Positions 2,956 to 61,552 of a stretch of 64,000 bases of DNA are shown one piece after another. Source of the DNA: Octopus vulgaris (lineage: Eukaryota); NCBI GenBank assembly GCA_951406725.2, contig OX597832.1:53754001-53818000 (forward strand), written 5' to 3'. Numbering within the stretch: the first letter of the stretch is position 1; every line of letters begins with the position of its first letter. The position numbers were made by a program, and so were the translations under genes. The notes under the pieces are model-generated. The model saw only the letters and a program-made list of their open reading frames with translations, did not search any database and had not been told where the DNA came from.

Positions 2956-4468
2956 CACAAAAGGGTGTATGGATTAATAGTATCACCTTTATTTGTTTTC
3001 TCATAAAATGTACATGTCCTGAACTATGTAAACATTTAATATCTGTCTCTTAGTAGCAGAGAAGAAGCACTTATTAAACATTTACACTGAAAGTCCTAAA
3101 CATGCAAATTTTATGAGAAAAGCAAATAAAGATGCATATATATACTTCCTTATATACAATTACAGTTTTATATTTCTGAGATAAGGAATTTATATTATGA
3201 TACTGTTTACGATTAGTCTTTTGTACGTGCCAAATATATATTAAATATGTGCACAAGGCAAGCAAGAATTGAAAATAATATTCTGGTAAGGTTATCTGTT
3301 TTGCAGTTGTTTTCCTCTTGATTCTGTCTGTCTAGTTGTTTCCTTTTCATTTACACATGCATAAAAATGTTTCCATGTCTCATGACTATATATAAAATTA
3401 CTGAGGAACAGTTGTTGAGAGAAAATAAGGTAGAATGAATAACAAAGTTTGTTTTATAATATGTGATTTATTGAAGGATAGACCGAGTGGTTTTTGCCAA
3501 ATAACAACAGATATATATTGAGCAAAGTCATACATGCTATGAAGTTACATTGGTGGATAACATAATACAATGCAATTTAGAGATTTTACATGAATTGTAT
3601 ACAAATGAAGACAGAAAATACGAGATGATATTATATTTGCAAAGTAGTTTAATTAGTGAAGAAAAGCCTACATAGTATAGTGTCATAATATATCTTAGTG
3701 GCTTCTCTAGTCTCCTTCCATTGCCCTCTTTTTGCCTCTCAAAGATTCTGATGTGCTTCTTCTTTTAAAATGATTTAATTAGAAGAATAGAGTGGTGCCT
3801 ATGGTTTTTGCAGATCCTCCAGACACGGGTTTAACACAACTTTTTCATTACATTGTTTAACTGTATTGGAAATGTGGCTAGGGAAGGAGTTCCAGAGTTC
3901 TTCAGTTTTGTAAAAAGAGGTTTGTTAAAAAAAAGTATTTTCTTAGTAGTTTAGGAGATGAGACATAATGGATATGATGACCACATGGAAAGTAGATTGT
4001 GTTGGATGGGCTTGGGTGAAACAGGAGCACAACTTAGTGGTTTTAAGAGACGGAGATCAGTATATCTGTGGCCTGCTGGCAGCAGCCTTTTAATGTGTAT
4101 CTATAACAATTTCCTGGATACAACTGAGGATATTTATGTGTATATAACAGAAACACAAAAGAGCAGTGAAGATTAATGCTTACTTATAGAGTCATAGTTC
4201 TGATTTATCAATAACTGGTCTACATTTAAACATTTTCAGCTTCTGATGAAGGAGAGACGTAGTTTTTAAGACATTATTTTGGTATTACTATAGATGTGTT
4301 TTGGTATTATTATAGGTTGCGGGCCTCACAGAGGCAATGACTAGTGACTGAGACCTTTGGTGATATGCCATGCTTGAGAAGACTCATAAAGCCAAGTGAA
4401 ATTGTAGTCATGGCTAATGCTGGTCTCATGTAACTGGCACATAAAAGGTACCTTCCAAGCATTCGCCT

Positions 4469-4899: not shown

Positions 4900-5514
4900 G
4901 CCTCACAGAGGGAAAATGGTCGATCCTGTCTTGTGTAATTAGCACCCATGCCGGAGGTAAGTAAAAAGCACCTTTAGAGCATTGGCTCTCAGAGGTAATG
5001 ACAAAGGACTGAGACATTTGGCAATATGCTGTGCTTGAGTAAAAGACCCACGAAGCCAAGTGAAATTACAATTGTGCCAGATACTGGTGTCATGCAATTG
5101 ACACCCATGCTGGTGGCACATAAAAGCACCCATTACACTCTCAGAGTGGTTGGTGTCAGGAAGGGCATCGAGCTCTTCAGCTTACCGCCCTGGTCAAACC
5201 GTCCAACCCATGCCAGCACGGACAACAGATGTTAAATGATGATGATGATGATGATTTAAATTAGTAAGACTGGTGTCCTCATCTTGACTGCTGCTTTCAC
5301 TACATTTTGGCTGTTGTATGCACCAACCTTCATTAGGTGTCTTGTGCTGAAGTTGGTCGTTCAAAATTCCGATATGACATCCCAGTTCAACGCAAAACAC
5401 CTGAAGAAGGCAGGAGCACACAACCACTGAAACATAGTGAAAGCAACAACCAAGATAAGAACCACCAGTCCAACTATAATAATATAAACAGTATATTTCC
5501 ATATATATATATAT

Positions 5515-14607: not shown

Positions 14608-15932
14608 ATGTGTTCCCCACCCCCACCCAGCTGAACGGGATGCCAGTCCATCGCAGCGTTACTCAAGAAACAGGAAGAGAGAGTGAGAGAAAGTTGTGGC
14701 AAAAGAGTACAACAGGGGTCGCCACCACCCCCTGCCGGAGCCTCGTGGAGCTTTTAGGTGTTTTCGCTCAATAAACACACACATCACCTGGTCTGGGAAT
14801 CGAAACCGCGATCCTCCGACCGCGAGTTCACTGCCCTAACCACTGGGCCATTGCGCCTCCACTGTCCCCCTTTTAAAGCCTATCCAGGTTCATAGGCCCG
14901 GTTTCCCGGTTTCTATGGCGTATGTGTTCCCCAGCTGGACAGGACACCAGTCCATCGCAGCGTTACTCATTTTTGCCAGCTGAGTGGACTGGAGCAACGT
15001 GAAATGAAGTGTTTTGGGATCTTTTCCTTTTGAACGGCACTTTGTAACATAATTTTCTAGGTAACTAAAAAGTTTTAAACTTCGTATACTGGTAGAATGT
15101 GTTTATAAAACATCATTTTCTCTTGACTTTATTGAGAAAACTCTATAGTTTGTAAGATATTTCGTTTTAGATTTAGGGTTAGAGTTAGGGGTTGGGGAAG
15201 GGTATCTTTTTTTCTTCACAAATGTAAATAAACCCAATTGCATTTCGGCAATTTTAACCAATCACTGGAATCCATTTAGGTAAATAACATTCTGTGCATA
15301 ATGAATATGTCCCTCCTTTAAGAAACAGATTGGGTTTATTTACATTTGTGAAGAAAAAAGATACCCTTCCCCAACCCCTAACCCTAACTCTAACCCTAAA
15401 TCTGAAATAGATTGAAATGCAATAGATCGATACTAGGGTTATAATTATGGGTGACAATTTCATACGACACCGCTACGGAAACTGGGATTTTTTTTCTAGC
15501 GGTGTCAAATGAAAACGTCATCCATAATTATGGCCCTAGTATCGATCTATTGCATTTCAATCTGTTTTAGATTTAGGGTTAGAGTTAGGGGTTGGGGAAG
15601 GGTATCTTTTTTCTTCACAAATGTAAATAAACCCAATCTGTTTCTTAAAGGAGAGACATATTCAAATGCAAGTAATTTCAGACGAAATATCTTACAAACT
15701 ATAGAATTTTCTCAATAAAGTCAAGAGAAAATGATGTTTTATAAACACATTCTACCAGCATACAAAGTTTAAAACTTTTTAGTTACCTAGAAATTATGTT
15801 ACAAAGTGCCGTTCAAAAGGGAAAGATCCGTGTTTTGCTCAAGAACACAACGCGTCGCCCGGTCCAGGAATCGAAACCACAATCTTACGATCATGATCCT
15901 GACACCCTAACCACTAAGCCACGCGCCTCCAC
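14608..15932 (-). mobile_element. Two adjacent SINE-like elements (family 3); the second is split by a MITE
   Basis: tRNA-like heads on the minus strand (GGAGGCGCRTGGC..GGTTAGGG..GGTTTCGATTCC). Related copy at 55835-56135. Confidence 0.6.
15017..15829. mobile_element. Palindromic MITE with GGATC...GATCC ends and 8-bp TSD (Merlin-like; hAT or P not excluded)
   Basis: TSD GTGTTTTG at 15009-15016 and 15830-15837, long inverted arms, internal TTAGGG-like blocks. Confidence 0.8.
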
Positions 15933-29195: not shown

Positions 29196-29658
29196 ATGTG
29201 GTGTCGGTTTCTCCCTCTGTTATCACTGTCTCTCTCTCTCTCTGTATATATATCTCGCCTTCACTCGCTTCCACAGGCTTAGCCAATACGCAGGATGAAA
29301 AATATCAGCTAAGTCCTGTTCCTTCTTTTCATTGTTTTTGCAAGTATCATCATCACCATCAAGCCTTCTTATTATTATTGTTTCCCCATATATTGGCGTT
29401 ATCGTTGTCTTTCGTCTCAAATGCTAGCTGAAGCATATAAACTTTCATTTACAAAAACTTCGCAAAAACATCTCGTCTCAAATTTGGTCTTTCTTTTCTG
29501 TCGCTAAATTCTCTAACCCATCTTTTCCCAACTTCCACTCATAGAAACTTATGCACACGATCGCAAAGCATTCCATCTCAAATCCTGTCTTTCTTTCTGC
29601 CGCCTAAAAATCTCATCTTCTCCCATTGCGCGGTGTCGTTTTGTCCCTCTGTTATCAC

Positions 29659-29695
<37 letters not shown>

Positions 29696-30171
29696 CTCTC
29701 TCTCTCGCTATGTGGTGTCGGTTTCTCCCTCTGTTATCACTGTCTCTCTCTCTCTCTGTATATATATCTCGCCTTCACTCGCTTCCACAGGCTTAGCCAA
29801 TACGCAGGATGAAAAATATCAGCTAAGTCCTGTTCCTTCTTTTCATTGTTTTTGCAAGTATCATCATCACCATCAAGCCTTCTTATTATTATTGTTTCCC
29901 CATATATTGGCGTTATCGTTGTCTTTCGTCTCAAATGCTAGCTGAAGCATATAAACTTTCATTTACAAAAACTTCGCAAAAACATCTCGTCTCAAATTTG
30001 GTCTTTCTTTCTGTCGCTAAATTCTCTAACCCATCTTTTCCCAACTTCCACTCATAGAAACTTATGCACACGATCGCAAAGCATTCCATCTCAAATCCTG
30101 TCTTTCTTTCTGCCGCCTAAAAATCTCATCTTCTCCCATTGCGCGGTGTCGTTTTGTCCCTCTGTTATCAC

Positions 30172-30218
<47 letters not shown>

Positions 30219-30681
30219 ATGTGGTGTCGGTTTCTCCCTCTGTTATCACTGTCTCTCTCTCTCTCTGTATATATATCTCGCCTTCACTCGCTTCCACAGG
30301 CTTAGCCAATACGCAGGATGAAAAATATCAGCTAAGTCCTGTTCCTTCTTTTCATTGTTTTTGCAAGTATCATCATCACCATCAAGCCTTCTTATTATTA
30401 TTGTTTCCCCATATATTGGCGTTATCGTTGTCTTTCGTCTCAAATGCTAGCTGAAGCATATAAACTTTCATTTACAAAAACTTCGCAAAAACATCTCGTC
30501 TCAAATTTGGTCTTTCTTTTCTGTCGCTAAATTCTCTAACCCATCTTTTCCCAACTTCCACTCATAGAAACTTATGCACACGATCGCAAAGCATTCCATC
30601 TCAAATCCTGTCTTTCTTTCTGCCGCCTAAAAATCTCATCTTCTCCCATTGCGCGGTGTCGTTTTGTCCCTCTGTTATCAC

Positions 30682-30716
<35 letters not shown>

Positions 30717-31195
30717 CTCTCTCTCTCTCGCTATGTGGTGTCGGTTTCTCCCTCTGTTATCACTGTCTCTCTCTCTCTCTGTATATATATCTCGCCTTCA
30801 CTCGCTTCCACAGGCTTAGCCAATACGCAGGATGAAAAATATCAGCTAAGTCCTGTTCCTTCTTTTCATTGTTTTTGCAAGTATCATCATCACCATCAAG
30901 CCTTCTTATTATTATTGTTTCCCCATATATTGGCGTTATCGTTGTCTTTCGTCTCAAATGCTAGCTGAAGCATATAAACTTTCATTTACAAAAACTTCGC
31001 AAAAACATCTCGTCTCAAATTTGGTCTTTCTTTTCTGTCGCTAAATTCTCTAACCCATCTTTTCCCAACTTCCACTCATAGAAACTTATGCACACGATCG
31101 CAAAGCATTCCATCTCAAATCCTGTCTTTCTTTCTGCCGCCTAAAAATCTCATCTTCTCCCATTGCGCGGTGTCGTTTTGTCCCTCTGTTATCAC

Positions 31196-31234
<39 letters not shown>

Positions 31235-31710
31235 CTCTCTCTCTCGCTATGTGGTGTCGGTTTCTCCCTCTGTTATCACTGTCTCTCTCTCTCTCTGTAT
31301 ATATATCTCGCCTTCACTCGCTTCCACAGGCTTAGCCAATACGCAGGATGAAAAATATCAGCTAAGTCCTGTTCCTTCTTTTCATTGTTTTTGCAAGTAT
31401 CATCATCACCATCAAGCCTTCTTATTATTATTGTTTCCCCATATATTGGCGTTATCGTTGTCTTTCGTCTCAAATGCTAGCTGAAGCATATAAACTTTCA
31501 TTTACAAAAACTTCGCAAAAACATCTCGTCTCAAATTTGGTCTTTCTTTCTGTCGCTAAATTCTCTAACCCATCTTTTCCCAACTTCCACTCATAGAAAC
31601 TTATGCACACGATCGCAAAGCATTCCATCTCAAATCCTGTCTTTCTTTCTGCCGCCTAAAAATCTCATCTTCTCCCATTGCGCGGTGTCGTTTTGTCCCT
31701 CTGTTATCAC

Positions 31711-31745
<35 letters not shown>

Positions 31746-32224
31746 CTCTCTCTCTCTCGCTATGTGGTGTCGGTTTCTCCCTCTGTTATCACTGTCTCTC
31801 TCTCTCTCTGTATATATATCTCGCCTTCACTCGCTTCCACAGGCTTAGCCAATACGCAGGATGAAAAATATCAGCTAAGTCCTGTTCCTTCTTTTCATTG
31901 TTTTTGCAAGTATCATCATCACCATCAAGCCTTCTTATTATTATTGTTTCCCCATATATTGGCGTTATCGTTGTCTTTCGTCTCAAATGCTAGCTGAAGC
32001 ATATAAACTTTCATTTACAAAAACTTCGCAAAAACATCTCGTCTCAAATTTGGTCTTTCTTTTCTGTCGCTAAATTCTCTAACCCATCTTTTCCCAACTT
32101 CCACTCATAGAAACTTATGCACACGATCGCAAAGCATTCCATCTCAAATCCTGTCTTTCTTTCTGCCGCCTAAAAATCTCATCTTCTCCCATTGCGCGGT
32201 GTCGTTTTGTCCCTCTGTTATCAC

Positions 32225-32265
<41 letters not shown>

Positions 32266-32720
32266 CTCTCTCTCTCTCGCTATGTGGTGTCGGTTTCTCC
32301 CTCTGTTATCACTGTCTCTCTCTCTCTCTGTATATATATCTCGCCTTCACTCGCTTCCACAGGCTTAGCCAATACGCAGGATGAAAAATATCAGCTAAGT
32401 CCTGTTCCTTCTTTTCATTGTTTTTGCAAGTATCATCATCACCATCAAGCCTTCTTATTATTATTGTTTCCCCATATATTGGCGTTATCGTTGTCTTTCG
32501 TCTCAAATGCTAGCTGAAGCATATAAACTTTCATTTACAAAAACTTCGCAAAAACATCTCGTCTCAAATTTGGTCTTTCTTTCTGTCGCTAAATTCTCTA
32601 ACCCATCTTTTCCCAACTTCCACTCATAGAAACTTATGCACACGATCGCAAAGCATTCCATCTCAAATCCTGTCTTTCTTTCTGCCGCCTAAAAATCTCA
32701 TCTTCTCCCATTGCGCGGTG
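28248..32720. repeat. Tandem array of ~515-bp units (8 full plus 1 partial)
   Basis: Unit starts (CAATACGCAGG) at 28248, 28762, 29284, 29798, 30307, 30821, 31337, 31850 and 32370. Length variation is essentially confined to the (CT)n tract. Confidence 0.97.
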
Positions 32721-38327: not shown

Positions 38328-38610
38328 GTAAATATGTTTCCTTTAGTTTATCATTAATGAAATTCCTTTGAAATACTCAACAAAACTATGTAAGTCATGT
38401 GTGTTTTTGTTTGTGATTTGATAAGCAGTGCCAAGTTTTGCAATTCTGTAAATAATAATAATAATATTTTATAAACTTAAAGCTTATAAGCAATCACCAT
38501 GTATTGATTTACTTTAATTAAAACATGGTGATTGCTTATGAGTTTTAAGGTCATAAAAATATTAATATTATATAAATCTGTTGTAACTTAATTTTTTATG
38601 TACGATATCA

Positions 38611-40837: not shown

Positions 40838-43370
40838 AATTTCTTCTCCAATTCTACTAAAGAATCTACAATAAGAGCAAGGTCATCAGCATATAGCAGT
40901 TCCGAAGGGCACCCAGTTTTGAATTCCTCTGTTATGGCCTGGAGGACTATAATGAATAAGAGTGGGCTGAGAACTGAGCTCTGGTGAACCCCTACCTATA
41001 TGTTAAATTCATCACTGTATTCATGGCTGACTCTCACCCTCCTGACAACACCACTGTACATGGTTTGTACAGCTCTAACAAGCCACTCCTCTACTCCTAA
41101 TTTCCTTAGAGACCACCATATAAGAGAGCAGGGAATTTTCTCCAGGTCTACGAAGGCTAAGTACAATGGCTTACTTTTGGCCAAGTATTTTCTTGCAGTT
41201 GTCTCACTAGGAAGATGGCATCTGTGATACTCTTCCCAAGTACAAAACCAAACTGCATCTCATCTAGTTTAATTCTATTTCTAATCAATTGAGCTGTAAC
41301 TGTCTCAGTAACTTTAATGGCTTTGTCTAACAATTTAATGCCTCTGTTGTTGTTTCTATCTAAGGCAACACTTTTACCCTTGTAGCAGCTAAATGTAATA
41401 CTATCAGGTAATACCATAAATTCTGTCTGAATTTTGAATAAAGAAAACAAGTAATCAAATGTTATATTTAATTGAAATTTAATCATCAATGCACTTTCCA
41501 TGATTATCTATGACTTCCTTCCATCTATTTACAAGCTTTTTAATCCCATCAATGTAAAACTCTTTTGGTTTCAAAGTGAAGAACTCTGAATTATCAGTTT
41601 CGACCTCCTCCTGGCTTGCGAAAGTTATGTCCCCCAAATGATTCTGTAAACTACAAAACATGGTAGTCTGAAGGAGCAAGGTCGGGAGAATAAGGTGGAT
41701 GAGGAACTTTTTCCCAACCAAGCTCTTTGATCTTCTGTGATGTGATCTTTGTGGTGTGGGGTCATGCATTGTCCTGATGAAACATCATTCCTTCTCGATT
41801 CAGTAAAGCGGGTCTTTTTTTCTTCAAAGCTTGGTTCAAATGCTCTAATTGCTGACAGTAGACTTGAGCATTGAGTGTTGCATTAGGTGCTAACAATTCA
41901 AAGTGAATTACTCCTTTGCAATCCCACCAGATAGAGAGAAGACCCTTTTTTCCATGAAGTTCCCTTCTCGGTTGTGGTTGAGCTTTTCCCTTTTACCAAG
42001 CCACTGTTTACGATGTTCAACATTTCGATGGAAAATCCATTTTTCATCACCAGTCACAAGTCTATACAAGAAGGGTGAAATGAGTTTGTGAGAATGGAGA
42101 GAAGAGCAGATATCAACTAAGGATTTGTGGTTGCTTTCGGACATTTTATGAGGCACCCATTTTCCAAGTTGTTGAAGATGATGATTGACAGTTGTATGGT
42201 CTGAACTAAGCTCTATTGCCAATTCAAACTCAAATGGACGTCCTGTTTGATCTTCATCTTCAAGGCTGAAATCTTCACTTCTGAATTTTGCAAAACATCT
42301 TCTGCAAGTTCTTTCATTCAAGCATTCTTTCCCATAAACTGAGTGTATGTTTTGAGTCGCTTCAGCTGCAGAGTTTCCTTTTTTGAACTCATAAAACATT
42401 ATGTGCCTTAAATGCTCTTTGGATATTTCCATGTTAGAAAGGGTTCTAATCAAAGAAATTTTAATTCTTTTATTCTGTAAAATAATATTTAATTAGTTTA
42501 AATGCACACAAAGGCATAAAAATAATTTTTAATTCCATTAGACATTCTAAAATACTACTGAATCTCATTCAATTTAAAAAAAAGTAAAATCGGACAGAAC
42601 TTATGGGATGACCTGATAATACACTAGTCATTGGGGATGGTGCCCTCCTGAATAACCTGATTAGCTATATAGGTGACTAAGTTGTATCCTACACCACCGG
42701 AGATTTTAATAATCTCTATAGTGATTCCTGACGGCCCAGGGTCTTTCCCTGTCTTCATATCCTTAATTGTCTATTATGTTGCTATCAACTCTAATGTAGC
42801 CCTCAGTAAATTCTCCCACAAGAACTTCCAGTTGTCCTCTATGTCCCCAACTTTTCCTTTCTTTTGTCAGAAGCTTCCATTAGTAAATCTCTAAATTTTT
42901 GTCTGTTTGCTGGGCATTTGAGCTTCCATAGTCTTCTTTTCCACATTGGTTTATTTCCATAGTCATCTTTTCCACATTGGTTTATTTCTCCGGGTCTTTC
43001 TAGCTCTAATTCTGAAATCACTAACTAGTAACCTATAATGGGTTGTGCACTCTTCACCTGGGAAAGACTTTGCATTTCTAAGCATCCATCTATCTCGTTG
43101 CCTGGTGAGGAGGTAGTCAATCTGGCTTTCGTGCTCACCAGACTGATAAGTGATTAGGTGGCTGGGTGGTTTTTTGAAATTAGTGTTGCAAATCATGAGA
43201 TCATTTCCATCACAAAACTTGAGCAGTCTTGTTCCCTCCTCATTTCTAGGTCCAAAACTATAGTCCCCATTCACTCCCTGGGATCCATGGGGATGCTGTC
43301 CAACGTGTCCATTGAAGTCACCAGCCACAATAATACAGTCTCTGTCATTTGTTGTTGAGGTGGACTACAA
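40838..43370 (-). mobile_element. Decayed RTE-clade LINE (APE + RT) interrupted by a mariner
   Basis: AGDFNGHVG, SQIDY, MQFGF..TDAIFLVRQLQE, AFVDLEK and LLYADDL motifs. Confidence 0.85.
41404..42616 (-). mobile_element. Mariner transposon, decayed, nested in the RTE LINE
   Basis: TIRs TCAGGT(A/C)AT(A/C)CCATAA.TTCTGTC with TA on both flanks. ORF has WVPH, VTGDEKWI and GIKKLVNRWKEVI. Confidence 0.9.
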
Positions 43371-43960
43371 AAGGATTTCATAGAAAATTTTCAGCTATTC
43401 CCCATATGTATGTATGTATGCATGCATGCATGTATTGACAGCAACTCTAGCTGCTAACCACGAACTATGAAATAACTTTCTCAGCTTATCAAACCTTGAT
43501 ATAGGAAAAATTTATAATCTTCTATGTTAATAAACCATTATTGTTCCTGAAGGTTTTTTTTATACCTTCTATGGACAGCTTGAAGCTTATAACTTCCTAC
43601 ACCCTGATGCTTAGATCTTACCTGTACATATATATATATATGCATATCTATGAGGGTGCATGTGTGTGTAAGTGTGTGCAGTTTCCTGTACATTTGTTGT
43701 AACAAACAAAAGAAAATACATGCAACACATAGTGTGATAAGATTCTATTTATTTGGATGAAAATCACCTGAATCATTGCTCTGAGGGATTCAGCAAATGG
43801 TTCAAACATCTGTATTTGTGTAGAGATATGTATTCAGATAACATATAAATATATATATAAAATTATAATGAAGAAGATGATGATGATGATGATGAAGATG
43901 ATAATTATATATCTGTATCTATCTATCTATCTATCTATCTATATATATATATATATATAC

Positions 43961-44305
43961 ACAATTGCAGCGTGGAAGGTGTTTATAAGCCATTTAAGAA
44001 ACACACAAAACCGTTAGATTCACTTCAACATTTAAATTTAATTTGTCAAAATATTTTCGTCACTTTGAGACCGCGACATGTTCACTGACAAAGCTTCGTG
44101 ATGCAGCACAAAACTTTGTCAGTGAACATGTCGCGGCCTCAAAGCGCCGAAAATATTTTGACAAATTAAATTTAAATGTTGAAGTGAATCTAACGGTTTT
44201 GTGTGTTTCTTAAATGGCTTATAAACACTTTCCACGCTGCAATTGTTTTCGTTCCAGATCATGTTCTCAGATCAAGTCACTCGCTATGCAAGTACATCTC
44301 TGTAA
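43961..44305. mobile_element. Palindromic non-autonomous element with inverted arms, each carrying a hammerhead-like motif
   Basis: 43961-44092 is the near-perfect reverse complement of 44115-44246; flanked by (TA)n. Confidence 0.85.
44115..44165 (+). ncRNA. Minimal type I hammerhead ribozyme, G3:C8 core variant (mirror copy 44042-44092, minus)
   Basis: Stem I TTTGTCA/TGACAAA, core GTGAACA, stem II GTCGC/G(C/T)GAC (intact in the minus copy, GCGCC in the plus copy), GAAA, palindromic stem III AATATT. Confidence 0.65.
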
Positions 44306-44370
44306 TATATATATATATGATTATATATATATATATATGATTATATATATATATGATTATATATATATAT

Positions 44371-44523
44371 ATCTATACAATATGTTACATTACTCGGTAG
44401 TCAAGATAAAACTCAGAGTTTTATCTTGACTACCAGTAATGTAACATATTGTATAGATAAATTTCCTCTATTTACATAATATTGAGGTCTCTTTCTTTCT
44501 TTTGTTATCTTACCGTTTTATCA

Positions 44524-44554
<31 letters not shown>

Positions 44555-46640
44555 TATATATATATATGATTATATATATTGATAAAACGGTAAGATAACA
44601 AAAGAAAGAAAGAGACCTCAATATTATGTAAATAGAGGAAATTTATCTATACAATATGTTACATTACTCGGTAGTCAAGATAAAACTCTGAGTTTCAGAT
44701 GCCGAAGTGGAAATCCACAACACCATCTCTTCGGTTATCTGGCTATTTGAAAACGTTATGAAAAAATACCGTTAAAAATGAAGGGAAATTACTCTGTTAT
44801 AACTCTGCTTTGCCTGCGTACTTATACATCGCTCGCATTTTTCGTCATAAAAATTATATAAAAATACATAAAAATATATAAAAATATATAAAAATATATA
44901 AAATCTTCTTGGGACATAACACAGAAAGTATGTTCTATCCGTTTTCTTTAGGGGACCAAAAACGTAACAGAAATTTAGTCACATGTGGGCATGATCCGAA
45001 AAGTTCTGTCCTTGTATTTAGACATGTGGTAGGGTCTAAGCTGCTTTTCCAGATAAGCCATCTCTCCATGTCGCATAAACCGCACCTTCCGCTGCCGTTA
45101 GTATAGGGCTTACATCTGGCCAAAATCTTCCATTGTATGTTATAATCGACACCTTTATCTCTTAAAGACCAAATATGATTGGATAATTGTGTCGCTTTTC
45201 TTTTGTTCCAGTGCCTAAAGCTCAAAGTGTGGTTATTGAACCTGGCCTTGAAATTACCCTCTGTCAGGCCCACGTATTTCTTCGTCAAAACGGTGTCTTT
45301 AGTGGTTATAGAGTTTACAGTAGCTTCATATATGATGGTCTTGGACATGCAAGCTCCATTTAGCGGGCACAATTCTTTATTCCTGCATGAACAGCTGTTT
45401 TCTTCTTGTGTTTTTTGTATGTTATGTTTGATTATGTTTTTAAAATTGGTAGTTGAACTAAAACTAATTTTTAAATTGTGTCTATTGAAGAGTTTCCTAT
45501 AAGCATGGTTAACTGGAAAATGTCTATCTATCAGTGCTAGGAAATATTTACCTATATTGAAGGCCACCTCGGGTGAGTAAGGGGCGTAAACCAGATGACC
45601 TTCCTATTTCTATTATTCCTTTTCCTTATTGTTGGGCTGGTGATAAGTGTATATTTTATTTTTTCGCTAAAACCACTATCTTTTAAAGCTTTATTATAAA
45701 CTGGGGCAACGCTATTGAAGATGTCCTCATTAGATGAGAGGCTAGAAATCCTCTTACTAATATTTTTAACTAAATTTTTGAATACTATAGGGGGATGGCA
45801 TGAACCTACATTAATATAACTTAGTCCATCATTGGGCTTCCTATAAGGCTTATAAATATTATTATTAAGATCTAAGGAAACGTCTAAGAAATTGACAACC
45901 GTCAGGTTAGTGTCTATAGTTATACTAAGTCCGAAGTGTTTCATTAACTGGATAATATCCTTCCTAAAACGATCTTGTGCTGGTCCATTTGTATTAGCTG
46001 TTAAGGCGAGGGCATCATCTTTGTAGATGGCGAAATGTACGTTAGGGAATGTCTTACTGAAGGTATCTAGGAGAAAGAGTCCAATTAGATCACAGATGCC
46101 TGCCCCATCATATGAACCCATGCTCACATCGAAAGCGCCCTCCGTGTCGGTGTTTTTTACCCACTTTGCATTCTCACTGAAAAGTAATGTCTTTCTAGCA
46201 TGGAAGATTATATCCTTATCATTGGTACTAATTTCTATGAAGTCACTAGCGAAGATTAGGGCTTTATCTAGCAGTTCTTTAGAGATAGAGGCATAAAAAT
46301 CAACAATATCGAATTGTGTAAACCTCGCTTTTTTCTTATTCTTAATAGCTTTAAACCAGTCTACGACTTCTATACTATTGGACAAGAAGATTTTATATAT
46401 TTTTATATATTTTTATGTATTTTTATATAATTTTTATGACGAAAAATGCGAGCGATGTATAAGTACGCAGGCAAAGCAGAGTTATAACAGAGTAATTTCC
46501 CTTCATTTTTAACGGTATTTTTTCATAACGTTTTCAAATAGCCAGATAACCGAAGAGATGGTGTTGTGGATTTCCACTTCGGCATCTGAAACTCAGAGTT
46601 TTATCTTGACTACCGAGTAATGTAACATATTGTATAGATA
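44371..46640 (-). mobile_element. Penelope-like element copy A (Naiad-type), 5'-truncated with inverted 5' pLTR
   Basis: RT (DIVDFYASI, SMGSYDGA, YKDD) plus GIY-YIG. 3' pLTR at ~44580-44907, inverted pLTR at 46382-46640, (TA)n flanks. Confidence 0.9.
44935..46385 (-). pseudogene. PLE RT + GIY-YIG ORF, frameshifted near 45581
   Basis: CSC-x5-CPL linker, IIYEAT..YVGLT and C-terminal CGLC. The G run has 4 G here versus 5 in the open copy near 59956. Confidence 0.88.
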
Positions 46641-46766
46641 TGATTATATATATATATAAATATTTATATATGCATGTATGAATATGTATATATAAACACA
46701 CACAAGTCGTAAAGTCAATTATCTGTTCAAAACTTAGGCTTGAGTGTTATGTGTGTCATGTTTGAG

Positions 46767-52432: not shown

Positions 52433-52465
<33 letters not shown>

Positions 52466-52473
<8 letters not shown>

Positions 52474-54107
52474 ATGTTACATTACTCGGTAGTCAAGATA
52501 AAACTCTGAGTTTCAGATGCCGAAGTGGAAATCCACAACACCATCTCTTCGGTTATCTGGCTATTTGAAAACGTTATGAAAAAATACCGTTAAAAATGAA
52601 GGGAAATTACTCTGTTATAACTCTGCTTTGCCTGCGTACTTATACATCGCTCGCATTTTTCGTCATAAAAATTATATAAAAATACATAAAAATATATAAA
52701 AATATATAAAAATATATAAAATCTTCTTGGGACATAACACAGAAAGCATGTTCTATCCGTTTTCTTTAGGGGACCAAAAACGTAACAGAAATTTAGTCAC
52801 ATGTGGGCATGATCCGAAAAGCTCTGTCCTTGTATTTAGACATGTGGTAGGGTCTAAGCTGCTTTTCCAGATAAGCCATCTCTCCATGTCGCATAAACCG
52901 CACCTTCCGCTGCCGTTAGTATAGGGCTTACATCTGGCCAAAATCTTCCATTGTATGTTATAATCGACACCTCTATCTCTTAAAGACCAAATATGATTGG
53001 ATAATTGTGTCGCTTTTCTTTTGTTCCAGTGCCTAAAGCTCAAAGTGTGGTTATTGAACCTGGCCTTGAAATTACCCTCTGTCAGGCCCACGTATTTCTT
53101 CGTCGAAACGGTGTCTTTAGTGGTTATAGAGTTTACGGTAGCTTCATATATGATGGTCTTGGACATGCAAGCTCCATTTAGCGGGCACAATTCTTTATTC
53201 CTGCATGAACAGCTGTTTTCTTCTTGTGTTTTTTGTATGTTATGATTGATTATGTTTTTAAAATTGGTAGTTGAACTAAAACTAATTTTTAAATTGTGTC
53301 TATTGAAGAGTTTCCTATAAGCATGGTTAACTGGAAAATGTCTATCTATCAGTGCTAGGAAATATTTACCTATATTGAAGGCCACCTCGGGTGAGTAAGG
53401 GGCGTAAACCAGATGACCTTCCTATTTCTATTATTCCTTTTCCTTATTGTTGGGCTGGTGATAGGTGTATATTTTATTTTTCGCTAAAACCACTATCTTT
53501 TAAAGCTTTATTATAAACTGGGGCAACGCTATTGAAGATGTCCTCATTAGATGAGAGGCTAGAAATCCTCTTACTAATATTTTTAACTAAATTTTTGAAT
53601 ACTATAGGGGGATGGCATGAACCTACATTAATATAACTTAGTCTATCATTGGGCTTCCTATAAGGCTTATAAATATTATTATTAAGATCTAAGGAAACGT
53701 CTAAGAAATTGACAACCGTCAGGTTAGTGTCTATAGTTATACTAAGTCCGAAGTGTTTCATTAACTGGATAATATCCTTCCTAAAACGATCTTGTGCTGG
53801 TCCATTTGTATTAGCTGTTAAGGCGAGGGCATCATCTTTGTAGATGGCGAAATGTACGTTAGGGAATGTCTTACCGAAGGTATCTAGGAGAAAGAGTCCA
53901 ATTAGATCACAGATGCCTGCCCTATCATATGAACCCATGCTCACATCGAAAGCGCCCTCCGTGTCGGTGTTTTTACCCACTTTGCATTCTCACTGAAAAG
54001 TAATGTCTTTCTAGCATGGAAGATTATATCCTTATCATTGGTACTAATTTCTATGAAGTCACTAGCAGAAGATTAGGGCTTTATCTAGCAGTTCTTTAGA
54101 GATAGAG
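52466..54107 (-). mobile_element. Naiad-type PLE copy B-left, 5'-truncated
   Basis: Near-identical to copy A; forms the left arm of a 3.3-kb palindrome. Confidence 0.92.
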
Positions 54108-54108
54108 T

Positions 54109-55815
54109 TCTCTAAAGAACTGCTAGATAAAGCCCTAATCTTCGCTAGTGACTTCATAGAAATTAGTACCAATGATAAGGATATAATCTTCCATGCTAGA
54201 AAGACATTACTTTTCAGTGAGAATGCAAAGTGGGTAAAAAACACCGACACGGAATCGCTTTCGATGTGAGCATGGGTTCATATGATAGGGCAGGCATCTG
54301 TGATCTAATTGGACTCTTTCTCCTAGATACCTTCGGTAAGACATTCCCTAACGTACATTTCGCCATCTACAAAGATGATGCCCTCGCCTTAACAGCTAAT
54401 ACAAATGGACCAGCACAAGATCGTTTTAGGAAGGATATTATCCAGTTAATGAAACACTTCGGACTTAGTATAACTATAGACACTAACCTGACGGTTGTCA
54501 ATTTCTTAGACGTTTCCTTAGATCTTAATAATAATATTTATAAGCCTTATAGGAAGCCCAATGATAGACTAAGTTATATTAATGTAGGTTCATGCCATCC
54601 CCCTATAGTATTCAAAAATTTAGTTAAAAATATTAGTAAGAGGATTTCTAGCCTCTCATCTAATGAGGACATCTTCAATAGCGTTGCCCCAGTTTATAAT
54701 AAAGCTTTAAAAGATAGTGGTTTTAGCGAAAAAATAAAATATACACCTATCACCAGCCCAACAATAAGGAAAAGGAATAATAGAAATAGGAAGGTCATCT
54801 GGTTTACGCCCCTTACTCACCCAGGTGGCCTTCAATATAGGTAAATATTTCCTAGCACTGATAGATAGACATTTTCCAGTTAACCATGCTTATAGGAAAC
54901 TCTTCAATAGACACAATTTAAAAATTAGTTTTAGTTCAACTACCAATTTTAAAAACATAATCAATCATAACATACAAAAAACACAAGAAGAAAACAGCTG
55001 TTCATGCAGGAATAAAGAATTGTGCCCACTAAATGGAGCTTGCATGTCCAAGACCATCATATATGAAGCTACCGTAAACTCTATAACCACTAAAGACACC
55101 GTTTCGACAAGAAATACGTGGGCCTGACAGAGGGTAATTTCAAGGCCAGGTTCAATAACCACACTTTGAGCTTTAGGCACTGGAACAAAAGAAAAGCGAC
55201 ACAATTATCCAATCATATTTGGTCTTTAAGAGATAAAGGTGTCGATTATAACATACAATGGAAGATTTTGGCCAGATGTAAGCCCTATACTAACGGCAGC
55301 GGAAGGTGCGGTTTATGCGACATGGAGAGATGGCTTATCTGGAAAAGCAGCTTAGACGCTACCACATGTCTAAATACAAGGACAGAGCTTTTCGGATCAT
55401 GCCCACATGTGACTAAATTTCTGTTACGTTTTTGGTCCCCTAAAGAAAACGGATAGAACATGCTTTCTGTGTTATGTCCCAAGAAGATTTTATATATTTT
55501 TATATATTTTTATATATTTTTATGTATTTTTATATAATTTTTATGACGAAAAATGCGAGCGATGTATAAGTACGCAGGCAAAGCAGAGTTATAACAGAGT
55601 AATTTCCCTTCATTTTTAACGGTATTTTTTCATAACGTTTTCAAATAGCCAGATAACCGAAGAGATGGTGTTGTGGATTTCCACTTCGGCATCTGAAACT
55701 CAGAGTTTTATCTTGACTACCGAGTAATGTAACATATTGTATAGATAAATTTCCTCTATTTACATAATATTGAGGTCTCTTTCTTTCTTTTGTTATCTTA
55801 CCGTTTTATCAATAC
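54109..55815 (+). mobile_element. Naiad-type PLE copy B-right, 5'-truncated
   Basis: Reverse complement of B-left; pLTR at 55480-55812, ending in (TA)n. Confidence 0.92.
55651..55713 (+). ncRNA. pLTR type I hammerhead ribozyme with variant core CCGAAGA; identical copies at 46544-46606 (+), 44678-44740 (-), 52496-52558 (-), 59054-59116 (-)
   Basis: Stem I AGATAA/TTATCT, core CCGAAGA, stem II GATG/CATC enclosing a GTGG/CCAC hairpin, GAAA, palindromic stem III ACTC-A-GAGT, predicted GUU cleavage site. Confidence 0.7.
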
Positions 55816-58844: not shown

Positions 58845-59020
58845 CTGAAATAAATTTGAAAGGTAAAACAAGACATGTAATATAGATTATTAAAAAATAA
58901 ATAGCATACAGTTCGTATTTATTTTGAAATTTTGTATCAAGAATAATTAATTCAGTGTTAAAGGAAATGTGAGCATGTCAAAGAGTATATATATGCATGT
59001 GTGTGTGTGTGTGTATATAT

Positions 59021-60336
59021 ATCTATACAATATGTTACATTACTCGGTAGTCAAGATAAAACTCTGAGTTTCAGATGCCGAAGTGGAAATCCACAACACC
59101 ATCTCTTCGGTTATCTGGCTATTTGAAAACGTTATGAAAAAATACCGTTAAATAAAGGGAAATTACTCTGTAATAACTCTGCTTGCCTGCGTACTTATAC
59201 ATCGCTCGCATTTTTCGTCATAAAAATTATATAAAAATACATAAAAAATATATAAAAAATATATAAAAATATATAAATTCTTCTTGCGACATAACATAGA
59301 AAGCATGTTCTATCTGTTTTCTTTGGGGGACCAAAAACGTAACAGAAATTTAGTCACATGTGGGCATGATCCGAAAAGCTCTGTCCTTGTATTTAGACAT
59401 GTAGTAGGGTCTAAGCTGCTTTTCCAGATAAGCCATCTCTCCATGTCGCATAGACCGCACCTTCTGCTGCCGTTAGTATAGGGCTTACATCTGGCCAAAA
59501 TCTTCCATTGTATGTTATAATCGACACCTTTATCTCTTAAAGACCAAATATGATTAGACAATTGTGTCGCTTTTCTTTTGTTCCAGTGCCTAAAGCTCAA
59601 AGTGTGGTTATTGAACCTGGCCTTGAAATTACCCTCTGTAAGGCCCACGTATTTCTTCGTCGAAACGGTGTCTTTAGTGGTTATAGAGTTTACGGTAGCT
59701 TCATATATGATGGTCTTGGACATGCAAGCTCCATTTAGCGGGCACAATTCTTTATTCCTGCATGAACAGCTATTTTCTTCTTGTGTTTTTTGTATGTTAT
59801 GTTTGATTATGTTTTTAAAATTGGTAGTTGAACTAAAACTAATTTTTAAATTGTGTCTATTGAAGAGTTTCCTATAAGCATGGTTAACTGGAAAATGTCT
59901 ATCTATCAGTGCTAGGAAATATTTACCTATATTGAAGGTCACCTCGGGTGAGTAAGGGGGCGTAAACCAGATGACCTTCCTATTTCTATTATTCCTTTTC
60001 TTTACTGTTGGGCTAGTGATAGGTGTATATTTTATTTTATCGCTAAAACCACTATCTTTTAAAGCCTTATTATAAACTGGGGCAACGCTATTGAAGATGT
60101 CCTCATCAGATGAGAGGCTAGAAATCCTCTTACTAATATTTTTAACAAAATTTTTGAATACTATAGGGGGATGGCATGAATCTACATTAATATAACTTAG
60201 TCTATCATTGGGCTTCCTATAAGGCTTATAAATATTCTTATTAAGATCTAAGGAAACGTCTAAGAAATTGACAACCGTCAAGTTAGTATCTATAGTTATA
60301 CTAAGTCCGAAGTGCTTCATTAACTGGATAATATCC
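59021..60336 (-). mobile_element. Naiad-type PLE copy C, 5'-truncated, uninterrupted 336-aa RT-thumb + GIY-YIG frame
   Basis: ORF 59310-60320, pLTR 59021-59283, (TG/TA)n flank. Confidence 0.92.
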
Positions 60337-60550
60337 CCTCTGTGTTTAGCCCCTTGTGGGTAATAAAGAAATAGGTATTTCTTCTGCTGCTACATTCGGA
60401 GTTCAAATTCAGCCAAGGTCGACTTTGCCTTTCATCCTTTTGGTGTCGATAAATTAAGTACCAGTTACGCACTGGGGTTGATATAATCGACTTAATCCAT
60501 TTGTCTGTCCTCTCTGTGTTTAGCCCCTTGTGGGTAGTAAAGAAATAGGC

Positions 60551-61055
60551 ATTGTTCTCCCAGTCAGTCTCCTGCATATCATAGGCCTTTAATGAGGACG
60601 TGATACAGTTTTTAAATCGCAGCCTTGATTTCTCCCGGAGGTTCTTTCCATTCACAAATTCTCCATAGAGTATCTGTTTTGGGATCCTGCTATATTTCAT
60701 TCTAAGATGTTCAGTTCAGCGTAACCGGTGCTTGTGACAATCACCTCAGTACTCAAGAAATCAGCTGTCCTCAGGACCTGTGTGCTTTCAAGGTCCAGCC
60801 AACATTCAGAATGTGTCTGAGACATCTCTGATGAAAGCGTTCAAGGACCCTTACATGACATTTGTAAAGGGTCCATGTCTCACATGAGTAAAGGGGTGAT
60901 GTCAGTACATATGCACAGTACACAGTAATTTTTGTTTGCCTTGTGATGCTGGGACCAGACACAAGACTGAAGAGACCAGAAAGAATCAGTTGCTCTCTGC
61001 AGCCTGAAAGATATTTCCTCATCCAAGAACGGCTGAATGTGCTGCCCAGGTAGTT
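60551..61055 (-). mobile_element. RTE-type LINE 3' ORF fragment (second family)
   Basis: LYSCETWTLY, LERFHQRCLRHIL and SRIPKQILYGE motifs. Confidence 0.75.
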
Positions 61056-61067
61056 GGCTTGTTGCCA

Positions 61068-61552
61068 AGAATGCTTATGTCACATAGCCAACTGGAAACA
61101 GTGTTTCCTTGGACTGCCACATTAAGTTGGCAACAAACCATTACTTTATTGTGCTGCTACCGTATAAGTCGCTCTGAGAGATTTAGAAGTGCAATATTTC
61201 TACTTTTGTCGATCAGTTAATTTGTTTCACTTGAAATTCTGTAAGCTTTCAAATGCGAATAAGCATCGACAGCTAGCAAGCCAAGCTACACCATACTGAT
61301 GAAGTGCAATGACTCTGAAACTAGTCTCTGGGTGCTGGCTTTGCTGGGTGGAGGTGCTTGTCTCTCCTTTTTGAAAACTTAACGGCACAGAATGCTTGTG
61401 TCACATAGCCAACTGGAAACTGTGCTGCTTGGAGCTAAATAGCAGTAGCATTCTTCTCTTTCCTGGTCTGCCACATTAAGTTGGCAACAAACCATCACTT
61501 TATCGCGATGCTACTGTAAAAGTCTCTGAGAGATTTAGAAATGCAATATTTC

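Follow-up and report, generated by a model that had tools for sequence, protein, structure and literature searches.

The window (the whole stretch of DNA analysed, 64,000 nucleotides) carries at 44370-44526 a 157-base mirror-image stub, a head-to-head Penelope-like element (PLE) attributed to the Hydra clade and lying inside a TA tract. Positions within the element are given as a coordinate x counted from the predicted cut of its hammerhead-like motif, the 3' product beginning at x = +1; S denotes the short 3' end (x = +40) and L the long 3' end (x = +107), which has a 67-nt tail. The stub and its flanks comprise the following features, the two microsatellite entries being read from the sequence.

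44306..44369, no strand: target to the left of the stub, a TA microsatellite interrupted by TGAT
44370..44421, minus strand: stub short arm, x = +40 (S) to -11, antisense on the plus strand; 98% to a natural unit by BLAST
44409..44421, no strand: stem III palindrome, which is the join; 13 nt common to both arms, centre base A at 44415
44409..44526, plus strand: stub long arm, x = -11 to +107 (L), with the 67-nt tail; 99% by BLAST
44527..44576, no strand: TA/TGAT spacer of 50 nt between the stub and the next insertion

Aligned with its own reverse complement, 44367-44462 matches at 94.8% over 97 columns, with the centre at 44415 and the core palindrome AAACTC-A-GAGTTT at 44409-44421. The palindrome that the initial annotation placed here is therefore borne out, as is its axis, the stem III palindrome of a hammerhead-like motif. 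The two arms overlap by 13 nt and each ends at x = -11. The predicted cut site of the long arm lies between 44420 and 44421, and each arm keeps the 12 nt 5' of the cut (x = 0 to -11), which cover stem III and continue into the three A of GAAA; missing from the stub are the first core box of the hammerhead, its stem II and G12. The statement that the fold-back holds only sequence 3' of the ribozyme core is thus refuted, and an RNA cut at this site could not have been the template of arms that hold these 12 nt. Since both arms reach x = -11, the junction is not a ribozyme-defined end, which removes the proposed connection to a ribozyme-defined RNA end; the ribozyme and the fold-back are connected by nothing more than sequence symmetry. 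The unit pattern of the spacer at 44527-44576 repeats that of the left flank of the stub, and the spacer is possibly the target duplication of the stub, the limits of which are hidden by the microsatellite. One G is absent from the long arm near 44434, and the same one-base deletion occurs at 15 genome sites.

Neighbouring insertions and the element family

On both sides of the stub lie further insertions, with the hammerheads of the second insertion predicted from sequence.

43961..44305, no strand: stub from a second hammerhead family, arms head-to-head and 143 nt each, axis at 44103/44104, tail on one side only (44247-44305)
44577..46383, minus strand: second insertion, long arm, with L end, pLTR, GIY-YIG and the 3' part of the RT (frameshifted); 5'-truncated at x = -1691
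44678..44740, minus strand: predicted type I hammerhead of the second insertion, intact; the centroid fold gives stems I and II
46383..46640, plus strand: inverted pLTR arm of the second insertion, x = -218 to +40 (S end)
46544..46606: second intact hammerhead, in the inverted arm of the second insertion

The second insertion (44577-46640) is separate from the stub, stands tail-to-tail with it across the 50-nt TA spacer, and is itself head-to-head, its left end being +107 and its right end +40; the two may nevertheless stem from one complex event. A second self-inverted block (44409-44695, 96%) spans both. The right arm of the stub had been described as inverted again relative to 44577-44690, and this inversion is present, but its assignment to the same fold-back is rejected because 44577-44695 is the L end of the neighbouring insertion. 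The hammerhead at 44678-44740 would consist of stem I (AGATAA/TTATCT), a CCGAAGA box, stem II, GAAA, the palindromic stem III and a GUU triplet. The second hammerhead family, with 7354 intact arms in the genome, has a core with a G3-C8 swap and an extra base after position 9, and its stub at 43961-44305 has the axis immediately 5' of the ribozyme. The TA tracts of 43940-46690 thus hold a stack of three head-to-head insertions. The window also holds two young copies of the stub's family, a 3.3-kb two-armed insertion joined at -1598/-1593 (52459-55815) and a single S arm to -1268 (59017-60336), as well as self-inverted repeats of other families (14900-15830, 5262-5476, 38455-38571, 2984-3134), a tandem array at about 29600-32400 with a period near 515 nt, and, by eye, LINE endonuclease- and RT-like fragments at 42963-43364 and 60320-61079 (minus strand).

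The element itself forms 2579-nt tandem units with one ORF, the translations of which read as an RT followed by a C-terminal GIY-YIG endonuclease. Pfam finds both domains only weakly, with scores short of the cut-off (RVT_1, E 0.037; GIY-YIG, E 0.0099-0.024), the atlas neighbours carry HTH_animal and GIY-YIG, and a PDB sequence search returned 0 matches. Near-identical full-length 2579-nt units stand in an array with an inverted arm at L076-L077 (C1:57208300-57223200), where the unit read has one frameshift; the L076 translation includes MRWKAF, SDKTKN, CSCRNKELC, CGLC and CPH, and its nuclease core is without cysteines. The hallmarks of an EN+ Penelope-like element are present, namely tandem or partial-tandem pLTR copies, an inverted 5'-truncated copy, a one-sided tail and, apart from the one frameshift of the copy read, the ORF order RT then GIY-YIG. 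The features of the Hydra clade are likewise found: RWK, DKT, a CxCX5C linker, CxxC, CxH, the absence of the CCHH cysteines, a length below 3 kb and TA targets. The element therefore probably belongs to this clade, an assignment by motif match by eye against section 11 of PMC8557442 rather than by a tree.

The hammerhead-like core of the pLTR has CCGAAGA (with C at position 4), GAAA, GUU and C3-G8, where the consensus boxes are CUGANGA, GAAA and NUH. Stems I and II and a short palindromic stem III are seen in the sequence and centroid fold, the latter showing stems I and II; the fold of the region is unremarkable (z only -1.0), and an Rfam scan of the window gave 0 matches at gathering score. 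Intact ribozyme arms of the stub's family number 4164 and 1294 for two variants (exact patterns), and at the base of stem II the older subfamily has C instead of T before GAAA.

Recurrence of the junction and distribution of arm ends

The exact 27-nt junction of the stub is found at 35 sites across the 2.8-Gb genome (control pattern, 0), and all 35 loci, once examined, show one S end (near +40) and one L end (about +107). None of the 35 has mirrored flanks, nor do any two of them share near-identical flanks, the best partial matches being 71-92%. Five further loci represent a -13 variant, in which the L arm is extended to -13, and six near variants of the junction were found among 24 fetched non-exact matches (7 of the 24 lie outside the family and were discarded; the fetch did not extend to 11 further listed and 8 unlisted sites). 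By comparison, control palindromes yield 3 joins at the stem II loop and 0 at an ORF palindrome, which has a geometry equal to that of stem III but is reached by fewer arms; GGCC joins make up 16 of 50 among the matches listed.

This recurrence bears on the quality of the assembly. Fold-back reads, or a strand flip at the palindromic word, would generate such a structure artificially; signs of frequent errors are seen at a few palindromic loci (L225, L235, L242), and none of the listed pieces of the contigs of 4 public runs on 44368-44522 has 31 letters on both sides of the stub junction, a result that is uninformative either way. An artefact is nonetheless barely credible, given that the 35 loci have different, unmirrored flanks and a strict S/L asymmetry, that arm divergence grows with age, and that the second family shows the same junction class. 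The stub is a real, recurrent and ordinary member of a described layout, the head-to-head arrangement with a one-sided tail having already been reported (PMC3846280, PMC8557442, in their available text).

To place the stem III class among all inversions, we used as an unbiased sample the first 100 of 2273 matches, on contig C1, which contain 39 head-to-head junctions. Stem III junctions are 0 of these 39, and from the 0.39 junctions per match in this sample we estimate the class at roughly 2% of inversions. Arm ends from 0 to -20 are not enriched (2/92 versus 1.8 expected), and stem III is accordingly rejected as a stopping place of arms, whereas arm ends from -45 to -90 are strongly enriched (22/86 versus 3.7 expected) and fall sharply beyond -86, with 4/64 from -91 to -250. 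In the genome as a whole, a gap pattern just 5' of stem I has 257 sites (control 18) and the matching pattern over the cut site and stem III has 58 (control 22); all 40 of the 40 upstream-pattern sites fetched are family members. Therefore, stem III is a minor hotspot, and most short inversions fall just 5' of the ribozyme. The few arm ends at stem III and the many upstream indicate that stem III sets the register of the join whilst most copying stops elsewhere. The expectation that inversion breakpoints concentrate at stem III is upheld for exact joins and fails for arm ends, and stem III as the main connection between ribozyme and inversion gives way to the accumulation of ends 5' of the ribozyme.

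The zone from x = -45 to -90 maps to 44728-44773 (minus strand) of the window. By eye, candidates for the cause of the stop are a transcription start, a putative 3' splice site-like TTTTCAAATAG ending at -59, and a possible branch point-like TTTAAC near -88. As the pLTR of Drosophila Penelope has a promoter and an intron ending at helix I (PMC2377424, available text), an RNA start or splice feature is a candidate cause of the upstream stop zone. Separately, the junctions of L097, L126, L134 and L030 contain a 17-40 nt insert re-copying nearby element sequence, as if the RT had realigned at the template end, and L266 is joined via stem I complementarity, with the whole ribozyme left at the hairpin tip.

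Origin of the stem III junction

That the fold-back is a footprint of Penelope-type reverse transcription, as first proposed, is supported by these results; the question is whether one cDNA or two gave rise to it. In the unbiased sample, 34 of the 39 head-to-head junctions pair an S with an L outer end. Among these 34 are 9 whose S arm exceeds the L arm by more than 20 nt on the 5' side; as the tail is exclusive to the L arm, neither arm of these 9 can have been copied from the other. The ends of the two arms are coupled (15/34 within 30 nt versus 3.3 after shuffling) without an L bias (L longer 6, S longer 7, equal 2), which fits two enzymes cooperating on one RNA or source.

Snap-back, in which a single cDNA from the long end passes stem III, folds on the palindrome and copies itself to S, requires at stem III that L be the starting end of whichever strand has T as its centre base. 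Such L-first polarity is seen at the stub, at 23 of the 35 loci and at all five -13 variants, giving 28:12 with the variants included (P = 0.017). Arms of the same locus share haplotypes and some rare variants (1.7 differences in 31 nt versus 5.4 for random pairs), and self-priming has been proposed for palindromic PLE junctions in the available text of PMC3846280. The remaining 12 of the 35 loci are S-first, an incompatible polarity in which the second arm holds the 67-nt tail absent from the first, and 3 of these 12 are among the 6 youngest loci. A one-base palindrome spacer can flip after insertion, and the centre base of S-first loci could have done so. At 3 of the 35 loci (L008, L010, L083) the arms belong to different subfamilies. 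A second arm that is a subset or copy of the first, with the centre base following the first strand, is thus not what 12/35 loci display by polarity and 3/35 by haplotype. Self-copying also needs a separate cause for stopping at S, where arms that cannot be copies end as well, and the computed hairpin is weak (-1.3 kcal/mol), compared with -11.2 for the duplex of the palindrome with a second copy and -9.3 for that of the stem II loop. The one-base deletion in the L arm of the stub is missing from its S arm, a weak argument, as it may be later or an assembly error; across the 11 loci with both arms seen, it is unshared in 10 and ambiguous in 1. The same deletion was also considered as a marker of source lineage and was rejected, because it recurs on single arms of both kinds. 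Overall, the counts speak for two-ended priming at the target rather than for self-priming. We consider snap-back improbable, and self-priming as the general route is not supported, given the wrong-polarity and mixed-subfamily loci, although the stub itself has the compatible polarity.

Two cDNAs could alternatively be brought together by the ribozyme as a dimer, two stem III-paired RNAs holding two RTs head to head so that the cDNAs meet at stem III. Dimers have been proposed for active PLE hammerheads (PMC4209133, available text), 3 of the 35 loci derive from two templates, and stem III has 35 joins as against 3 at the stem II loop, 20 nt apart and of similar duplex strength (-11.2 and -9.3). 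Against this, two-template loci number 2/20 at stem III and 0/20 upstream (P = 0.49; 20 of 35 and 20 of 40 loci parsed), exact stem III joins number 3 for the 7354 intact arms of the second family as against 35 for the 5458 of the stub's family, and arm ends show no enrichment at stem III, which leaves an RNA dimer very unlikely.

We propose instead that the stub consists of two separately primed cDNAs, started from the ends of the TA tract on uncut RNA and annealed via the self-complementary stem III, an account which we judge about evenly poised between right and wrong. Both cut ends of the TA tract would be extended by the element enzyme from two fixed start sites on uncut RNA, with priming from both target ends in the stub's family and a coupled termination of both cDNAs, often on the same RNA or source. 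The cDNA ends would then anneal by 12 base pairs around a T-T mismatch, which could be repaired either way. The ribozyme would supply its palindrome as microhomology, not its cut. In favour of two-ended priming are the S and L ends at 35/35 and 34/39 loci, the two polarities of the centre base, the mixed-subfamily arms, the 9 junctions with the longer S arm, the coupling of the two ends, the strong computed duplex of the palindrome and the funnelling of joins by other palindromes, together with in vitro results for another PLE, in which both strands are cut and extended from two start sites (PMC11167929). Counting against it are the near-alike arms of one locus, which are expected from self-copying too, the 28:12 bias towards the snap-back-compatible form, and the 0 joins at the ORF palindrome.

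The rate of stem III joins raises a different objection. By subfamily in order of inferred age, it is 2.6, 7.1 and 12.0 per 1000 intact arms (P = 0.003), with denominators that are different exact patterns, and the classes hold 6, 13.5 and 15.5 loci versus 14.6, 12.1 and 8.3 expected. Such a rise is predicted by a later collapse and not by joining at insertion. An insertion first joined upstream, usually just 5' of the ribozyme, would carry two directly repeated copies of the palindrome at its hairpin base, and slippage or repair would delete the sequence between the 13-nt copies, giving either centre base. A collapse also accounts for the -13 variant as well as for both centre bases; its upstream-joined precursor class is common, and 9 of 80 arms of this class have an internal deletion of at least 8 nt. 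It does not predict the 28:12 L-first bias, and the youngest class includes 6 of the 35 loci, the stub at 44370-44526 among them; moreover, the age order is inferred, and the stem II base of the older subfamily (C for T before GAAA) could alter RT pausing. Collapse alone is therefore rather unlikely as the source of the junction. Joining at insertion and later collapse may both contribute, with the palindrome as the microhomology in each, and the most likely role of the palindrome is that of a microhomology joining two cDNAs, at insertion or through later collapse.

Joins at the predicted cut site and comparison with known systems

A small set of junctions does coincide with the predicted cut. 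Blunt +1/+1 joins with no overlap occur at 5 loci (L176-L180), all with S and L ends, of which three are of the youngest class and two of the intermediate class; other registers near the cut have one locus each (+3/+3 and about +2/+3). Arms begin at +1 in 17 of 26 matches, at +3 in 7 of 12 and at +5 in 5 of 13. The excess at +1 has P = 0.005 by arms and 0.025 by loci, which becomes 0.16 after dropping four loci with at least 3 nt of microhomology. In the second family (that of 43961-44305), 2 blunt joins lie at its own predicted cut (L298, L299), the terminal 10-11 nt being repeated twice before the join in L298; its stem III joins comprise the 3 exact ones already mentioned and four variants, the latter from a check of 15 loci, 7 of which are non-family by alignment score. 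The blunt joins are suggestive of a trace of cleavage in vivo at the predicted site, but a pause at the three-way junction could give identical ends. A broader reading, in which stem III joins record paired RNA dimers and blunt joins record cleaved RNA templates in the germ line, that is, in vivo cutting by PLE hammerheads, is one to which we lend little credence; if true, Penelope insertions would be fossils of ribozyme states and genomic evidence for cleavage in vivo.

LINE-1 twin priming offers a related case, in which two cDNAs from two target strands are joined by microhomology and yield an inversion, the second primer annealing at variable internal sites. In contrast, the element described here has both starts fixed and both 3' ends outward.

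A literature search with most subscription papers and supplements outside its scope found no paper mapping PLE inversion junctions onto the ribozyme, and the available portions of PMC7229834 and bioRxiv 10.64898/2026.07.22.740005 contain nothing on junctions. Thousands of junctions with two fixed 3' ends make the models testable by counting, about 40 unbiased ones being mapped here. From the counts, the ribozyme palindromes emerge as sites where arms join, the principal stop zone lies immediately 5' of the ribozyme, and a handful of joins fall exactly on the predicted cut site.

The Hydra clade, as described in the available text of PMC8557442, shares with our element a unit below 3 kb, an RT followed by GIY-YIG, RWK/DKT, CxCX5C, CxxC/CxH, the absence of CCHH cysteines, TA targets, a pLTR hammerhead, an inverted 5'-truncated copy and a one-sided tail. 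The stub's family differs in a tail of 67 nt instead of 30-40 and in a deviating hammerhead core with C at position 4. Type I hammerheads of metazoan PLEs (PMC4209133, available text) likewise lie in the pLTR with a short palindromic helix III and a long helix II; motifs on opposite strands are 100-700 bp apart, and activity in vitro is low. In contrast to these, the stub's family lacks the additional base that they have between positions 9 and 10.1 and carries one ahead of G12, whereas the second family (43961-44305) has the extra base and the G3-C8 swap.

For Poseidon of Anolis carolinensis, in vitro work has shown that both strands are cut and extended and that ribozyme cleavage is unnecessary; two RT start sites match the genomic tail, a dimer is predicted, and the available text reports no RNA reads ending at the cut site (PMC11167929). 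The two RT start sites that define the tail and the AT-rich target are features in common with our element, as would be the extension of both strands and a mainly uncut RNA template. In contrast to the lack of cut-site ends among the Poseidon RNA reads, a few genomic joins of the stub's family fall exactly there. Further differences are that Poseidon belongs to another clade and that the available text of the same paper does not treat a cDNA-cDNA join. The Penelopes of Adineta vaga (PMC3846280, available text) have the same head-to-head layout, palindromic inverted junctions and a tail on one pLTR only, and self-priming was proposed for them on the basis of few copies, with an antisense template envisaged; in our case, thousands of arms permit counts, and these favour two separately primed arms.
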